DNA from: Candidatus Altiarchaeota archaeon
GTDB lineage: Archaea > Altiarchaeota > Altiarchaeia > IMC4 > SCGC-AAA252-I15
Direction of reading: 5' to 3'
Assembly (NCBI GenBank): GCA_043804895.1
Contig: JAZDIN010000006.1
Location: 1 to 28,655, forward strand
DNA length: 28,655 bases
Below, piece by piece: positions 4,243-10,244 of this stretch; position 1 is the stretch's first letter, and every line of letters starts with the position of its first letter. The notes under the pieces were generated by a model, which saw only the letters and a list, made by a program, of their open reading frames with translations, did not search any database and was not told where the DNA came from. A program made the position numbers and the translations under genes.

Positions 4243-4509
4243 ATGATGGGTAAGTTTGTCATGAAGGTTCCGGGTGGTAAGCTCCTGAAGGTCGCTGTCC
4301 AACATGACAGCGAGAAGATAGTGAAGATAAAGTTGTGCGGGGACTTTTTCATGCACCCTGAGGATGCGCTTGAGAGTTTGGAGGGTAAGCTTATTGGCGC
4401 CAGGTTAAGCCAGGTGAGGGGGATAGTAGCTGACGAACTGGCTGACGTTAGGCTCTACGGCGTTGATGTGAATTCCATCGTGAAAGCCATATGGGGGGCA
4501 GTGGGATGA
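4243..4509 (+). CDS. lplB: Lipoate-protein ligase accessory subunit (stand-alone LplA C-terminal domain, LplB)
   Basis: KVPGGKLLKV...IKLCGDFFMHPEDALESLEGKLIG motif. ATGA overlap with the catalytic subunit. Confidence 0.88.
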   Translation: MMGKFVMKVPGGKLLKVAVQHDSEKIVKIKLCGDFFMHPEDALESLEGKLIGARLSQVRGIVADELADVRLYGVDVNSIVKAIWGAVG

Positions 4510-5258
4510 GATGCAGGTTCATCGACACAGGAGAGCACACGGCATACTGGAACATGGGGTTGGACGAGGGTATCATGCAGCACATAAGTGAGGGTAGGAG
4601 TCCGACAACACTAAGGTTCTACAGGTGGAGGCCGGCTGCCGTGTCTGTCGGGTATTTCCAAAGCCTCCGCGAGGAGGTCGACGTTGACGCGTGCTACCTA
4701 AACAAAGTCGATGTCGTTAGGAGGGTTACAGGAGGCGGGGCAGTCTACCATGATAAGGAGCTGACATACAGTTTCATCGCAAGGGAGGATGCAGTCCCTG
4801 ACGACATATTGGAATCGTACAGGATGGTGTGCTCCGGCCTGATTGAGGGTTTCATGTTGCTTGGCATAAAGGCCGAGTTCGTGCCGTTGAACGACATAGT
4901 CGTGGGCGGCAAAAAAGTCAGCGGGAACGCGCAGACGAGGCGGATGGGGTGCGTGCTACAGCATGGGACCGTCCTATTGGACGTTGATGTGGACAGGATG
5001 TTCTCACTCCTTAGGGTGCCGAGCGAGAAGTTGAGGGGGAAGCTGATAGCGGACGTAAAGGAGAGGGTAACGTCAGTCAAAGGTGTTTTAAGGAAGGATG
5101 TTTCGTACGATATTGCGGCTGAAGCCTTCAAGAAGGGGTTCACGAAGGCGTTGAAGCTTAAGTTGGTGGACGGTGCCCCGAGTGAAAGCGAGATTGGGCT
5201 CGCCCACGAACTTGACTGCTGCAAGTATTCTACAATGGAGTGGAACGACAAAAGATGA
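4506..5258 (+). CDS. lplA: Lipoate-protein ligase A catalytic subunit
   Basis: NMGLDE, LRFYRW, SVGYFQ, VRRVTGGGAVYHD, NDIVVGGKKVSGNAQ, LQHGT. Start ATG 4506 overlaps the lplB stop. Confidence 0.93.
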   Translation: MRCRFIDTGEHTAYWNMGLDEGIMQHISEGRSPTTLRFYRWRPAAVSVGYFQSLREEVDVDACYLNKVDVVRRVTGGGAVYHDKELTYSFIAREDAVPDDILESYRMVCSGLIEGFMLLGIKAEFVPLNDIVVGGKKVSGNAQTRRMGCVLQHGTVLLDVDVDRMFSLLRVPSEKLRGKLIADVKERVTSVKGVLRKDVSYDIAAEAFKKGFTKALKLKLVDGAPSESEIGLAHELDCCKYSTMEWNDKR

Positions 5259-6577
5259 GACATGACGCCGTCGTGATTGGGGGAGGGCCTGGCGGCTACG
5301 AGTGTGCACTTTGGATGTCGAAGCTCGGCGGAAGCGCAATCGTCGTCGAGAGGGGAGAACTCGGAGGCGTCTGCACGAATAGGGGGTGCATCCCGACGAA
5401 AGCGTTGGTTGCAAGCTGCGAAGCCTATGAGACTGTCAGGCGTGCCCAAGAATTCGGAATTTCGGTTCAATCATCTGGCGTAGATTCCGAAACTGTTTTC
5501 AAACGTAGGGACAGAATCGCGTTGACCATGCGCAAGGGTGTTGAGAAGCTCCTGTCCGACGCGAAAGTCGAGGTCGTCAAAGGAGAGGCTAAGATCAAGT
5601 CCAGCACTGAGGTTGAAGTTGCTGGGAGGGTCATACAGGCTAAGAACATCGTGGTAGCCACCGGGTCTGAGCCTCTTGGGCTGCCTGGCATAGGATTAGA
5701 CCACGAGTATGTGATTTCAGGTGATGATGCGGCGACATCGTCAAAGCTTCCGAAGAACATTGTAGTCATAGGAGGCGGGTTCATAGGGTGCGAGTACGCT
5801 TCATTATATAGTAAATTAGGCAGCAATGTCACGTTAGTCGAGGCTTTACCCAGGATACTCCCAACTGAGGATGAGGATGTCTCGGATACCCTACACAAGA
5901 TTCTTTCCAAGGAGATGAGGGTATTAACAGGAGTGAAAGTAGAGTCGGTTGACATGGAGGGGAAGAGTGTTAAAGTCGCAGGCGAGGACATACCAGCAGA
6001 CCTTGTACTCCTTGCCGTGGGTAGGATGCCTATTATCCCAGAAGGGGCGAATGGCATTGGAGTGGTTCACAATAAAGATGGTATAACAGTAGATTCTAGG
6101 ATGAGGACGAACGTTAGGAGCGTTTACGCCATAGGCGATGTTACATCCAATCTGAAGCTCGCCCACACAGCCTACGCAGGCGCTGAAGCCGCGGCTAAGA
6201 ATATCATGGGCCAGGATTTTGAGGTTGACTTTTCTGTCGTGCCGTGGTGCGTGTTCACAACGCCCGAGGTAGCCAGGGTTGGTGTGACTGAAAAACAGGC
6301 AGGAGATAAGGCGAAGATAGGGATTGCAGACTACATGGCCAACGGCAAAGCCAGGTGCATGGGGGAGCGCAGTGGATTCTGCAAGGTCATAGCAGATTCC
6401 AAAACCGACGCTATAATCGGAGTGCACATCCTCGGAGCCCACGCATCAAGCCTCATAGGAGAGGCCGCACTGGCTGTGAAGGAGAGACTCACCACAGAAC
6501 AGGTAGCTCAGACTATACACCCCCACCCAACATTGAATGAGCTCATCAAAGAAGCCTGCGAGAAGGCAGCGGAGTAG
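5255..6577 (+). CDS. lpdA: Dihydrolipoyl dehydrogenase (L protein/E3)
   Basis: GGGPGG FAD motif, redox disulfide GGVCTNRGCIPTK, GGGFIGCE NAD motif, AIGD, HPHPTLNE. ATGA overlap with lplA. Confidence 0.95.
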   Translation: MRHDAVVIGGGPGGYECALWMSKLGGSAIVVERGELGGVCTNRGCIPTKALVASCEAYETVRRAQEFGISVQSSGVDSETVFKRRDRIALTMRKGVEKLLSDAKVEVVKGEAKIKSSTEVEVAGRVIQAKNIVVATGSEPLGLPGIGLDHEYVISGDDAATSSKLPKNIVVIGGGFIGCEYASLYSKLGSNVTLVEALPRILPTEDEDVSDTLHKILSKEMRVLTGVKVESVDMEGKSVKVAGEDIPADLVLLAVGRMPIIPEGANGIGVVHNKDGITVDSRMRTNVRSVYAIGDVTSNLKLAHTAYAGAEAAAKNIMGQDFEVDFSVVPWCVFTTPEVARVGVTEKQAGDKAKIGIADYMANGKARCMGERSGFCKVIADSKTDAIIGVHILGAHASSLIGEAALAVKERLTTEQVAQTIHPHPTLNELIKEACEKAAE

Positions 6578-6579
6578 AC

Positions 6580-7110
6580 TTATTTTTCGACGTTGCCCCA
6601 GAGTCTCCCAGAGCTTTGATAGGTGTTAGCCCCGGTTCTCGTGTCATTGTATGTGAGGACAATATGAGCCTCGAATCTTTTGCCAGATTCACCCATCCAG
6701 TTGCTGTTCGTAATCTCCAGCACCGCTGACTCGCCCGGGACTATAACGCACTCGCTACCAGGCGCTGACGGACCACATACCGGTGTGCTTCGGACTGTCA
6801 GGCAGTATGTTAAATACGGGTCGCATTCGGATGATTCCTTCTCTACCCTGACTGAAGCCTTCAAGAGGGTTACATTGGCTCCGACAGTGTTAAGGAGACT
6901 AACTTGTAATCGCCCGTTCTCGTTGAGTATGAACTCATTACCCTGGACCGTGAGACCCCAGAAGCCGAAGTTTCCTGGCTCGACTCGCTCCCCCAGGTTG
7001 AAGAGGCCCCACTGCCACATGACCACCATTATGACGAGTATAACCAAGAGCACCCACCCGTAGGTCATGAGGAACTCTAGCGAACCCTGCCCACGCTTAG
7101 AGGTTGCCAT
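6580..7110 (-). CDS. Archaeal type IV pilin-like protein (class III signal peptide)
   Basis: N-terminus KRG|QGSLEFLMTYGW plus hydrophobic helix (Q+1, E+5). Beta-rich C-domain with 4 Cys and N-glycosylation sequons. Confidence 0.88.
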   Translation of the reverse strand: MATSKRGQGSLEFLMTYGWVLLVILVIMVVMWQWGLFNLGERVEPGNFGFWGLTVQGNEFILNENGRLQVSLLNTVGANVTLLKASVRVEKESSECDPYLTYCLTVRSTPVCGPSAPGSECVIVPGESAVLEITNSNWMGESGKRFEAHIVLTYNDTRTGANTYQSSGRLWGNVEK

Positions 7111-7112
7111 TG

Positions 7113-7263
7113 TTATAGATTAGCCGGCTCAGAATATATAGCGAATGACATAAGTTGTTGAACTTTGGCTTGTTGGAAATCAGCCGAATTTATATGTCAT
7201 TCGATATATTCGATAGCAAATGTACATTGTCAAAAGTTCAGATACATTTGCTATCGTCTATAA
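7113..7263. ncRNA. Candidate structured RNA or cis-element: two long hairpins joined by a loop-loop pseudoknot
   Basis: Perfect inverted repeats 7142-7152/7193-7203 (11 bp) and 7211-7224/7243-7256 (14 bp). Cross-pairing 7159-7166/7233-7240 (8 bp). Outer pair 7113-7119/7257-7263. G.U pairs favour the + strand. Whether it is transcribed is unknown. Confidence 0.5.
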
Positions 7264-7273
7264 GAGTTGGCGT

Positions 7274-7849
7274 TTATTCGCCCAACCTTTCAGTGACGAT
7301 ATCTTTCAGTTGCCTGAACTCCTCTTCCTCTGGGTTTTGTTCTATTGCCTTCAGGCATGCTTCAAGGCTATCCTCGAAGCGCTCCTGGAAGAGGAGTATC
7401 CTTGACTTCCAGAACCACCCCCACCCTGACTTCTCACCCAGGCTTATAGACTTCTCGTATGAGTGTAAGGCGTCTTCAACCCTCCCTAACTCATCTTCCA
7501 TGAGGGCCTTACTAAGCCAGAAGTCTGGGTTGTGCATTTTCAGTTTGACAGCCTTTATGTAACATAAGAGGGCTTCCTTGTACATACTCTGCACCTGCAG
7601 AAGCTCCCCTTTCCTGAAATAAGCCCAAGCTGACTTAGGGTTCAGTTCGAGAGCGCGCTCAAAACAAGAAGCAGCCTCATCGTACCTGCCAAGGCGCGTC
7701 AGCGACCAGCCCAGGAGGACGTGTACCATGGGATCGTCTGGGTAACGTTGCTCATAATCTGAGATTAGCTTAAGCATAGCGTCTTCGCTTCCGGTTAGCT
7801 TGCTCATCGCCAGAAGACGGCTCATCAGCTCGTCAGAGGGTCCGGCCAT
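7274..7849 (-). CDS. Tetratricopeptide repeat protein
   Basis: Repeated TPR units, e.g. LGRYDEAASCFERALELNPKSAWAYFRKG, LGRVEDALHSYEKSISL, ERFEDSLEACLKAIEQNPE. Confidence 0.92.
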   Translation of the reverse strand: MAGPSDELMSRLLAMSKLTGSEDAMLKLISDYEQRYPDDPMVHVLLGWSLTRLGRYDEAASCFERALELNPKSAWAYFRKGELLQVQSMYKEALLCYIKAVKLKMHNPDFWLSKALMEDELGRVEDALHSYEKSISLGEKSGWGWFWKSRILLFQERFEDSLEACLKAIEQNPEEEEFRQLKDIVTERLGE

Positions 7850-7868
7850 AGTATAATAGATTACCCTG

Positions 7869-8390
7869 CTATTTTAAAGAGCGCACCGCAGCCAAGGCTA
7901 GTTTGGTCATCTCCTTCACGTTGAACCTTCCAGTGTTTATCACAAGGTCGTATGCGCTCAGGTCAGCCAGGTCTATCTTGTAGTATTTCATATAGCGGCG
8001 GCGTTCACTTTCATCGCGGGTTAGGATGTCCTCCCTAGCCTCAGTCTCCGATGCGTACTTTTCCCCCCTCTTGAGGGTCCTCTCAGCCCGGATATCAGCC
8101 GGTGCGACAAGCCATATGCTGAGGTCGGGTTTCAGGAAATATCTTGAGAGTCTCCCGTCAACTATGCAATTTCCTTTTGCGAGTTTGCGCTGCCTGCCGT
8201 CAATCTGCCTGTCGACTTCGGGATGCCGTTCAGCGTACTTTGAGAAATCCACCAACGTCATACACTTCTCGGAAGCCATCTCCCGCATGACCTTGCCTGC
8301 TGATATGTGCTTATAGGACAGCCGTTGCGCTAAAGCCTTCGCGAGGGTCGACTTGCCGGATGCCGCCTGCCCTCCGACAGTGATTATCAT
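7869..8390 (-). CDS. cmk: Archaeal cytidylate kinase
   Basis: P-loop GQAASGKST, ISAGKVMREMA, DRQID, VDGRL, RDESERRRY..YY, YDLVINT. Conserved position after rpl34e. Confidence 0.9.
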   Translation of the reverse strand: MIITVGGQAASGKSTLAKALAQRLSYKHISAGKVMREMASEKCMTLVDFSKYAERHPEVDRQIDGRQRKLAKGNCIVDGRLSRYFLKPDLSIWLVAPADIRAERTLKRGEKYASETEAREDILTRDESERRRYMKYYKIDLADLSAYDLVINTGRFNVKEMTKLALAAVRSLK

Positions 8391-8395
8391 CTTCG

Positions 8396-8890
8396 TTAGG
8401 TTTTAGACTTGATCTTCGCTTTTCCTTGCTTTTTCTTGGCAGGCTTAGCATGAGCCTTCAGTTGCGCAGCCTTCTTGACCTTGGTCCTCGGCTTCTCCTT
8501 AGGAGTTTTTTTAGTTATATGCCCTGAGGATACCTTGCCCCACCAGTCCCTCGGAAGGAACTTCTCGATTGTGAAATCCCTCTCGATGTCGAGGCTGGCG
8601 TACTCCGGCCCAGAGTGCTTGGCTTCCATCCTAGTGACGTACCTGACTAGGTCGTCAAGGCAGTTCGGGCACAATACGCCGCCATAGGAGCGGTCCGGTA
8701 TCCTCTGGCTTTTCGAAATGCTTTTCATCCAGGTGGGTGAGCCTGAGGCGACTCCACCCAGTTGGCTCTTACACCGCCCGCAGGTTACGTGACCTGCTTT
8801 CTCCTGGCGGAAGTGCGTTACCGTCCTTGCCCCGGGCGTTCTGATTTTGACCTTCTTCCTAGACCTTGTCCTCATGCTTCTTTTGACCAT
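8396..8890 (-). CDS. rpl34e: 50S ribosomal protein L34e with C-terminal extension
   Basis: RTPG, CGRC...LGGV, KSQRIPDRSYGGVLCPNC zinc-ribbon signature. Located in the adk-DUF106-L34e-cmk context. Confidence 0.93.
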   Translation of the reverse strand: MVKRSMRTRSRKKVKIRTPGARTVTHFRQEKAGHVTCGRCKSQLGGVASGSPTWMKSISKSQRIPDRSYGGVLCPNCLDDLVRYVTRMEAKHSGPEYASLDIERDFTIEKFLPRDWWGKVSSGHITKKTPKEKPRTKVKKAAQLKAHAKPAKKKQGKAKIKSKT

Positions 8891-8902
8891 CTTAAATCCT
8901 CC

Positions 8903-9664
8903 TCATGTAGTGCCTAATATTTTGTTGAATATCATACCCGTTATGAAGCTGCATGCGAAGTACCACCAGAACCAACCGTGTTCCATGCCGAATATTGTTG
9001 CGACAGTGGTGGAGCCTACGCTACCGTATAGTATAGAATATCTTGCTTTATTACCGTTAACCTGGACCTGCGTCTTGCTCAGTTTCAGGACAGCGTCTTC
9101 AGAGGCTTCGGTGCGAACGAAACTGCCGTTGTGCAGGTAATACTCGAGAGCCAACGGCGTAGGTATGAATTCCGTCATCTGGCCTTCAGAAGTCAACGTG
9201 ACGTTCAACTCCCCTGAGACCCCAGGTTCGATGATGCTCCAATTCCAAACGAGGGTATCACCTATTTGGTTGCCGTTAGGGCTTAAGTCAATTGAGTTGA
9301 ATGTGACCCCCCCAGGAAGTTGGTCTGTGACTGTAACATTGTAAGCGTAACCTAACGTCCCATACGCGCCACTCATCCACTGGAACACTAGGATGAATGG
9401 GATGAGGGTGAACAGCATCGGCTTGAAACCCTGATGCATCTGCTCCATGCTCACGTTCAGCATCTCCTGCTGGTGCTTCTGCATCGCCTTCACATCCTTC
9501 CTCTTCTGCGCCTCCTTAATCTGCTCCCTATGGTGCTTGACCTTCTCCTTATGCCCCTTCAGCTTCTCCTTGTCCAACACCACATGGCGGACTAGTGAGC
9601 TGACAAGCGTCAAGCCTGCCGAAACCAAGGCTATCATGTAGCCAGCCGACGTCAGTTCAAGCAC
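8903..9664 (-). CDS. EMC3/TMCO1 (DUF106, Ylp1-like) Oxa1-superfamily membrane insertase with inserted Ig-like domain
   Basis: TM1, cytoplasmic coiled coil, FKPMLFTLIPFILVFQWM (TM2), GWFWWYFACS (TM3). Conserved position between adk and rpl34e. Confidence 0.9.
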   Translation of the reverse strand: MLELTSAGYMIALVSAGLTLVSSLVRHVVLDKEKLKGHKEKVKHHREQIKEAQKRKDVKAMQKHQQEMLNVSMEQMHQGFKPMLFTLIPFILVFQWMSGAYGTLGYAYNVTVTDQLPGGVTFNSIDLSPNGNQIGDTLVWNWSIIEPGVSGELNVTLTSEGQMTEFIPTPLALEYYLHNGSFVRTEASEDAVLKLSKTQVQVNGNKARYSILYGSVGSTTVATIFGMEHGWFWWYFACSFITGMIFNKILGTT

Positions 9665-10244
9665 TTAAGACCCCCAAAAGTTGCTCTGCAGCCTGAGGCA
9701 GCGTGCCCTCCGGCTTCCAGATTATCTTTATAGGCGTGCCAGTAAACACCGAATACGCCATCGCAATGCTCCTGTTAACGCTCTGATGCCTCTCGATACC
9801 CTCGAGGTTGTCAACCTCACGCCTTCGGAAATCCCCACCAAGGTCCTTCTTACGGAACTTGTTTATGTCCTCCGGCCTACTCTCCAAAACGACAATCACG
9901 TCAGGCTTGAGTATCCTCAGCACCCACTCAGGCATCCCTGGGATGAAGCCCTTAGGAGTTTCTATCGAAGCGTGCGTGTCAAGTATTATCCCCTTCCGGT
10001 CAGCCAGCTTCCTAATCTCAGTCGCGGCCTTCTTCTGGATGTCATGCTGCTTCTCTATTGGCAGCTTCCTCATCTCATCGCGGTGCTTCACAAGACCGGC
10101 TGATTCTGCCGATTTGAGCATCATGTCGCCGAAGTTCACCATCTCATAATCCACCTTCACTCCTTTCTCATGCGCCTGCTGGAAGGCAGTCTTGACGACA
10201 GTGGACTTGCCCACACCCGGAACGCCAGTCATAACAACCAACAT
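9657..10244 (-). CDS. adkA: Archaeal adenylate kinase
   Basis: GVPGVGKST, VNFGDMM, HRDEMRKL, ILDTHASIETPKGFIPGMPEWV. SD-like GAGGTG upstream. Confidence 0.95.
   Translation of the reverse strand: MLVVMTGVPGVGKSTVVKTAFQQAHEKGVKVDYEMVNFGDMMLKSAESAGLVKHRDEMRKLPIEKQHDIQKKAATEIRKLADRKGIILDTHASIETPKGFIPGMPEWVLRILKPDVIVVLESRPEDINKFRKKDLGGDFRRREVDNLEGIERHQSVNRSIAMAYSVFTGTPIKIIWKPEGTLPQAAEQLLGVLSA

Follow-up and report, generated by a model that had tools for sequence, protein, structure and literature searches.

A gene-less twin-hairpin repeat at the TATA box of a pilin-like gene in an altiarchaeotal genome

Known gene-less elements and the repeat at this locus

TA-duplicating MITEs of the IS630/Tc1-mariner kind include the Correia/NEMIS elements of Neisseria, the RUP elements of pneumococci, SM1 of Sulfolobus and the Stowaway elements of plants. 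These are gene-less units of about 100–150 bp with terminal inverted repeats, which insert at TA with a 2-bp duplication and are found in many near-identical copies in intergenic regions, often touching promoters. To our knowledge, an ordinary MITE of the DDE type does not need its ends to be paired with internal return arms. In haloarchaea, a second kind of gene-less element is built from hairpins and sits beside a short fixed target, namely the PATEs, palindromic elements derived from IS200/IS605. We know of no IS200/IS605 or REP element that generates a 2-bp duplication, nor of any whose ends are inverted repeats. The third relevant group is made up of the REPINs and BIMEs, described together with the RAYT transposase (Bertels & Rainey 2011, PMC3116915), and the REP tags GTAG and CGTC are defined in PMC3733652.

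A census of prokaryotic MITEs published in 2024 (PMC11602168) lists Candidatus Altiarchaeum hamiconexum and a Woesearchaeota genome as the densest among archaea, with peak densities of 146 and 105 MITEs per Mb, respectively; dense MITEs in this archaeal group are therefore already on record. The passages in question give no anatomy, target or family for these elements with which the repeat described below could be compared. Searches of the literature, which took in these passages of the census, returned no published description of this repeat family. What is new here is the exact anatomy of the element, its empty sites, the 2-bp duplication and the landing in a TATA box with apparent restoration of that box, together with the spread of the family to other archaeal lineages and the absence of the tested transposase families from a complete carrier genome.

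The window, i.e. the whole stretch of DNA that was analysed, comprises 28,655 nt of contig JAZDIN010000006.1 from a Candidatus Altiarchaeota archaeon. Upstream of a pilin-like gene it contains a strongly folding segment, and the original prediction saw in it a candidate novel pseudoknotted RNA for pilin control, transcribed from the + strand with a start near 7141. Our analysis leads us to regard positions 7139–7260, with considerable confidence, as a copy of a non-autonomous, MITE- or REPIN-like DNA transposon rather than an RNA device controlling pilin. A miniature mobile element had been the last of the alternatives listed at the outset, and it is the one favoured by the repeat family and the empty sites. 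The element resembles the IS630/Tc1-mariner MITEs in size, lack of genes, terminal inverted repeats, TA insertion, intergenic and promoter-proximal location and near-identical copies. Unlike them, it has six carrier genomes, one of which is complete, that were found to lack DDE_3; a long parent with the same ends was not found in the contigs searched, and each end folds on itself by means of a covarying return arm. It is archaeal, gene-less, hairpin-built and located beside a short fixed target like the PATEs, but differs from them in that its ends are inverted repeats, a duplication accompanies insertion and TnpA and TnpB are absent from the genomes tested.

Anatomy, empty sites and the TATA box

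The pilin-like gene encodes 176 aa on the minus strand (6580–7110), and its promoter is the target of the insertion. The ORF has no Pfam family at E ≤ 0.01; the label was chosen for an N-terminal signal of basic, Gly and hydrophobic residues that we take to be of the archaeal class III type. Its upstream neighbour, on the same strand, is a TPR-repeat gene (7274–7849; TPR_1, E 4.3e-26), the stop codon of which lies 11 nt from the flanking TA and 13 nt from the element proper. The order of the neighbourhood (4243–10244) is a lipoate-ligase-like ORF, dihydrolipoamide dehydrogenase (Pyr_redox_2, E 7e-64), the pilin-like and TPR genes and cytidylate kinase, followed by ribosomal-protein-like, membrane and adenylate-kinase-like ORFs; four ORFs were compared with Pfam, and the remaining neighbours were named from their translations. 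Two + strand ORFs, of 135 aa (7155–7562) and 61 aa (7220–7405), start within the element and run antisense to the TPR gene. In all likelihood neither is a genuine gene, and annotation pipelines could call them in error. The G+C content is 36–40% in composition windows at the element versus about 50–55% around it.

When ten copies were aligned with 50 nt of flanking DNA, similarity began and ended sharply at (T)ATAGC... and ...CTATA. Together with the empty sites this defines a gene-less, twin-hairpin element of 122 bp at 7139–7260, assigned to subfamily 1 and bracketed by the left (7137–7138) and right (7261–7262) copies of a duplicated target TA. Hairpin A (7139–7206) joins the left terminus of about 14 nt to an internal return arm, and its loop carries TTGAAC at 7158–7163 and a small apical stem. 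Hairpin B (7209–7260) pairs an internal arm with the right terminus; its loop carries the inverted motif at 7236–7241, which reads GTTCAG in the window copy and GTTCAA in most copies. Both hairpins follow from the predicted fold and from covariation. The arms of hairpin A (7136–7152 and 7193–7209) span 17 nt and are 94% complementary, with an outer 8-nt pair at 7132–7139 and 7204–7211, and those of hairpin B (7205–7224 and 7243–7262) span 20 nt at 90%, with a perfect 14-bp stem at 7211–7224 and 7243–7256 inside. Direct reading and the repeat search place every pairing originally listed for the two hairpins where it had been put. The proposed closure of the whole structure by 7113–7119 and 7257–7263 fared less well: the complementary sequence is there, but its left arm falls outside the repeat unit, in unique promoter DNA, and the flanks of other copies do not have it, so the pairing is put down to chance.

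The palindrome foot reads (T/A)ATAGC in all copies. The two ends form a long, imperfect terminal inverted repeat: the first 30 nt are identical to the reverse complement of the last 30 nt at 19 of 30 ungapped positions in the window copy, and at 12–22 of 30 across 17 copies. Its inner motif lies at 7158–7166 on the left and 7233–7241 on the right, in each case 20–25 nt from the terminus; an exact-match test recovered it at equal offset in both ends of three of the 17 copies (C6, C10 and C4a). In relatives from other genomes the TTGAAC core and its inverse in the other loop keep the same offset, while the stems differ.

Covariation was assessed in an alignment (A1) of 17 of the 21 complete copies then known, which left aside three long variants of 179–180 nt and one short one of 88 nt. 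Double-sided changes occur in eight of ten pairs of hairpin A and in eight of 11 of hairpin B, and the proportion of paired cells is 90.3% in A and 99.5% in B; the rows are related and the counts are not probabilities. The complete structure scored better than all 500 column shuffles and every slid register. Since both stems covary between subfamilies, the hairpins matter, and we think it probable that their folded structure serves transposition.

The direct evidence for insertion comes from closely related genomes. The gene order Lpd, pilin-like, TPR and cmk is kept in all four genomes of the same genus, and in two of them, G001 and G003, no element lies between the pilin-like gene and the TPR gene. 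The empty site in G001 corresponds to the left flank of the window copy, TA and the right flank at 11 of 11 bases, which identifies the insert as the 122 bp at 7139–7260 with a TA on each side. Taken by itself, the pilin site fits a duplication of either 2 bp (TA) or 4 bp (TATA). In another subfamily, however, four copies are flanked by TA...TA (three in G001 and G003, one in the host genome) and one copy in G001 by TG...TG, and the latter favours a 2-bp over a 4-bp duplication. TA flanks nearly every copy; insertion takes place at a TA dinucleotide, which is duplicated in the process.

At the pilin locus this target is part of a promoter. Both G001 and G003 have a TATA box on the gene strand that begins 21–22 nt upstream of the conserved start of the pilin-like gene, and the insertion point, 28 nt upstream of the ATG, falls within that box. 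Once the element is in place, a TATA-like run again stands at the old distance (7133–7140, minus strand). It is composed of the half of the box nearer the gene, the duplicated TA and the terminal bases of the element, so that half of it derives from the old promoter and half from the duplication and the element terminus. Judging from its sequence and position, this rebuilt run may well function as a TATA box. The duplicated TA and the terminal TA of the element would thereby restore a TATA-like sequence where the old one was, so that the promoter probably still works; its probable retention would in turn explain why the insertion is tolerated. The pilin-like mRNA is probably leaderless or has a short leader, and the element, which lies upstream of the conserved TATA box and splits it, is not expected inside the pilin transcript. 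A second locus presents the same picture: on contig C64 of the host genome an element sits 26 nt upstream of a conserved ATG, and two sister genomes have a T-rich TATA box there instead. At two further loci, C24 and C66, the spacers do not align between genomes.

Copies in the host genome and in other archaea

Further copies were sought in the genome from which the window comes (G000; 1.58 Mb in 71 contigs, 88.7% complete) and in related genomes, as had been suggested at the start, and were found in both. Searches of the host genome at the DNA level, redone with blastn and nhmmer, returned seven other places with 89–97% identity over 123–132 nt, plus weaker or partial ones. There are at least five subfamilies, which share one architecture and differ in their stem sequences. 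The covariance model R1, built on alignment A1, gives 33 matches at E ≤ 0.01 on both strands, at 27 distinct places; 17 of these places are the training set and match by construction, and ten were new to the model. Copies in this genome are 88–181 bp in length. None of the 22 copies examined for this lies within a long ORF, and several are located between convergent gene ends, e.g. on C10, at C1:41610 and on C15. The family is thus multi-copy and gene-less and consists of short, dispersed copies, as is generic for MITEs. One contig terminates inside a repeat copy (C39:6297-6374), which makes the copy number a lower bound; the repeat family is probably behind some of the assembly breaks.

Several copies depart from the simple two-hairpin form. 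In the host genome, long variants of 166–181 nt have further small hairpins inserted where A and B meet, at the central TA; one or two such modules are seen at C8:2408-2586, C1:33522-33700, C59:883-1061, C25:101175-101340 and C4:54220-54313. Identical inserted modules are combined with A and B hairpins of different subfamilies, and because of this sharing the hairpin modules seem to nest into one another. Variants from metagenomes (L152, L178, L189, L192, L174 and L181) have additional hairpins of roughly 40–60 nt in the return arm or loop of hairpin A, which indicates that the element family tolerates insertions at several internal points. At C10:5338-5400, about 165 nt from a complete subfamily-1 copy, a hairpin A of subfamily 2 stands without a hairpin B; it is either a decayed copy or an indication that single hairpins can occur alone.

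By plain DNA similarity the subfamily of the window copy is confined to its own genome, with weak partial matches in two of 40 relatives. The covariance model reaches further and matches seven of the 20 additional genomes searched within the taxonomic family, among them all four of the genus. In a collection of species-representative genomes, a left-end motif with 18 specified bases occurred on 37 contigs, where about 17 were expected by chance. R1 confirmed the element on 19 of these 37, all with archaeal titles (Altiarchaeota, Woesearchaeota, Iainarchaeum, Thermoplasmata, Methanosarcinales and others named simply as archaea), and on none of the nine contigs with bacterial titles. On one Woesearchaeota-titled contig (L098:3370-3400, reverse complement) the left end is cut right after TTGAAC and continues into an ORF, whose first residues look Fic/DOC-like.

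One carrier, G041, is a complete archaeal genome of 1.24 Mb, in which R1 has 49 matches that fall at about 30 places; among 20 copies retrieved from this genome, 14 are near-identical. Five copies with both flanks alike each reside at the central TA of another twin-hairpin element. This composite, an element inside the central TA of an element, appears with identical flanks in L126, L131, L132, L138 and L141, which implies that the nested unit itself was copied.

The mobilising enzyme and alternative readings

The element consists of two hairpins only, in mirror orientation, each made of a terminus of about 14 nt that starts with TAGC, the TTGAAC motif 20–25 nt inside and a return arm that pairs with the terminus. 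Such a unit would be mobilised by a trans-acting enzyme, through cut-and-paste or copy-out, and what this enzyme recognises is most likely the two hairpins together with the TTGAAC pair. At the present locus the insertion went into the TATA box, 28 nt ahead of the start codon of the pilin-like gene.

Candidates for this enzyme were sought among nine transposase and nuclease families, and none fits. Y1_Tnp (PF01797) was absent from the host genome and the complete G041, in a search that did return matches in control genomes; the TnpB zinc-ribbon (PF07282) gave nothing over the cut-off in six genomes including these two; and DDE_3 (PF13358) was missing from all six carrier genomes searched (G000, G041, G019, G001, G014 and G007). 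The mariner family (PF01359) had no match in five genomes, which says little, as that search returned no match in any control genome either. GIY-YIG (PF01541), searched in five genomes, was represented only by UvrC-like frames of 539–696 aa, present in three of them, with no match in G041 and no small GIY-YIG protein in the host genome. DDE_Tnp_1 (PF01609) was absent from the host genome; a 296-aa frame in G014 and an 86-aa remnant in G041 do match this family, and neither is bounded by element ends. No rve domain (PF00665) was present in the host genome or G041, the sole match being in G019, and no resolvase (PF00239) was detected, including in the host genome and G041.

The search for a parent element gave a similar result. 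In the host genome, terminal motifs with up to two mismatches did not enclose a gene anywhere. None of the 37 genome contigs yielded a long form with a gene between the ends; the seven without a nearby right end were searched for one, and the others were read over 190 nt. Forty-five metagenome contigs contained short forms only, plus chance hits, and no gene-bearing long form. Two hits on viral contigs proved to be one and the same sequence and are not elements. A gene between two close copies in G041, considered as the enzyme, encodes a 107-aa membrane protein and was discarded. An autonomous parent with the same ends, as expected for a classical MITE, was therefore not found in the host genome or in the genome, metagenome and viral contigs searched.

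The element fails one defining test of each of two families that it resembles: there is no DDE_3 as for an IS630 MITE, and no RAYT and the wrong tag for a REPIN. It is conceivable, though we advance this only tentatively, that it represents a family of twin-hairpin, TA-duplicating elements in several uncultivated archaeal lineages (contigs titled Altiarchaeota, Woesearchaeota, Iainarchaeum and Thermoplasmata, plus the complete genome) that home to TATA boxes and rebuild them, and whose mobilising enzyme would be of a type so far unconnected with transposition. The argument for a new kind of enzyme is that none of the nine tested families co-occurs with the element, and homing to TATA boxes could perhaps rely on DNA bent by the TATA-binding protein.

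Among the alternatives, the one that survives best brings the element closer to REPINs and PATEs. An HUH-type enzyme, or another that binds hairpins, would act on the two hairpins in their folded, single-stranded form; its gene would lie outside the element, once per genome, as does that of RAYT in relation to bacterial REP doublets, and the repeat would be a long-term, vertically inherited resident with a possible host role in termination, insulation or protein binding. The likeness to REPINs and BIMEs is considerable: an inverted doublet of two hairpins that exists only in short forms, several old subfamilies persisting side by side in one lineage and even one genome, extra modules at the central TA that recall BIME mosaics, and stems that covary around a constant TTGAAC loop motif. 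A point against our preferred reading is that the return arms covary even between distant relatives, a pattern that hints at folded single strands being under selection, or at a function for the host. Against the REPIN- or PATE-like reading stand the absence of a Y1/RAYT gene from G000 and G041 and of TnpB over the cut-off from the six genomes, as well as the true 2-bp target duplication and the terminal inverted repeat of about 30 bp, both typical of elements that move by double-strand cut-and-paste. At the termini the tag reads ATAG, whereas the REP tags are GTAG and CGTC (PMC3733652), and the hosts are archaea. On balance we consider this reading rather improbable.

A somewhat less probable alternative is that the element is a portable promoter, the ends of which supply a TATA box and an upstream element, so that copies are kept because they drive their neighbours, including the pilin-like gene. 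Both this reading and our preferred one draw on the position of copies relative to genes, which was surveyed at 26 of the 27 places in the host genome; C4:54220, in which the second half is replaced by other modules, was omitted, as were the fragment at the end of contig C39 and the solo hairpin on C10. In ten of the 26 copies, an outward ORF of 80 aa or more begins with an ATG 25–29 nt beyond the terminal TATA, the distance expected in archaea between a TATA box and a leaderless start. One copy has an outward GTG at 29 nt and four have an ATG at 32–39 nt; five have an ATG at 6–19 nt, so that any promoter of theirs would lie inside the element. One copy, C42, is counted twice, with 25 nt at one end and 6 nt at the other, and the remaining copies are beside gene ends or far from starts. 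Applied to the background in intergenic DNA, this rule is satisfied by 6.0% of 15,962 TA sites and by 10.5% of 1,309 TATA sites; ten of 26 clearly exceeds both, and its binomial tails are 1.3e-6 (TA) and 1.8e-4 (TATA), figures that are only indicative given the crude intergenic mask. The gene is faced by end A in five and by end B in five copies of the 25–29 nt class, and by A in five and B in ten once the GTG at 29 nt and the four ATGs at 32–39 nt (all B ends) are added; orientation relative to the neighbouring transcript is not fixed. Such enrichment could stem from selection for function instead of target choice and tolerance. However, at both empty-site loci the sister genomes already have a TATA box, which was consequently not brought by the element, and the several copies between convergent gene ends do not suit this explanation. 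We judge it unlikely.

Much further down in probability is the structured RNA of the original prediction, which would contain a kissing-loop pseudoknot and influence the expression of pilin as an sRNA, a riboswitch or a ribozyme. Its premise of a non-random structure holds: besides the covariation of both stems, the + strand RNA is predicted to fold at -47.5 kcal/mol (z -6.14), and none of 200 dinucleotide shuffles folded as well. Yet the minus strand folds equally well, at -43.4 kcal/mol (z -6.29, again 0/200 shuffles); an equal fold on both strands is what is expected of a DNA palindrome and reveals no strand preference. In the top strand of the element, A1 contains 12 cells of the G-U type versus five of the A-C type, a difference that would favour RNA and that comes from related rows. 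At gathering score, Rfam 15 has no match within the window, in agreement with the initial statement that no known riboswitch or ribozyme could be recognised, and a permissive search of 6900–7500 returned chance-level matches only, the best of them to a plant microRNA model, with 26 bits where the cut-off is 96.2.

The pseudoknot itself was proposed on the grounds of an 8-nt complementarity between 7159–7166 and 7233–7240, which is exact. These 8-mers occupy mirror positions and are the inner part of the long imperfect terminal inverted repeat. Across A1, 77.5% of the loop-loop cells are paired and four of nine pairs are changed on both sides. In the copy at C20:24794-24917 both loop-loop arms are altered and still match, as an RNA would require; in subfamilies 3 and 4, however, the arms are unmatched, with five to eight unpaired cells in several columns, and a kissing loop is not borne out. 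The genomic context argues in the same direction. A riboswitch or leader is expected within the 5′-UTR and conserved with its gene, whereas this is a multi-copy repeat beside unrelated genes, with either end facing them, which two sister genomes, G001 and G003, lack in the orthologous spacer although the gene itself is retained there, and which sits upstream of, and splits, the conserved TATA box. A role as an RNA regulator of pilin is, in our view, very improbable.

Finally, an assembly fold-back artefact, for which only the palindromic shape and the end of contig C39 inside a copy (as repeats often cause) could be invoked, is practically negligible considering 27 places on different contigs with unique flanks and the presence of the family in independent assemblies, including a complete genome.

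For annotation, our preferred reading of the element as a mobile DNA repeat means that strongly folding intergenic palindromes in these archaea should be put to a repeat test before an RNA gene is proposed. The family is more than another MITE in that it consists of only two covarying hairpins with a constant loop motif, in that it enters TATA boxes and, as it appears, restores them, and in that none of the tested transposase families accompanies it even in a complete genome with near-identical copies. If the more tentative reading of a TATA-homing family is true, it would be an archaeal counterpart of the REPIN–RAYT system that uses another enzyme and whose landing site is safe for promoters. 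The element thus offers a tractable case of how small archaeal genomes tolerate and spread repeats, and possibly a way to a new mobilising enzyme.
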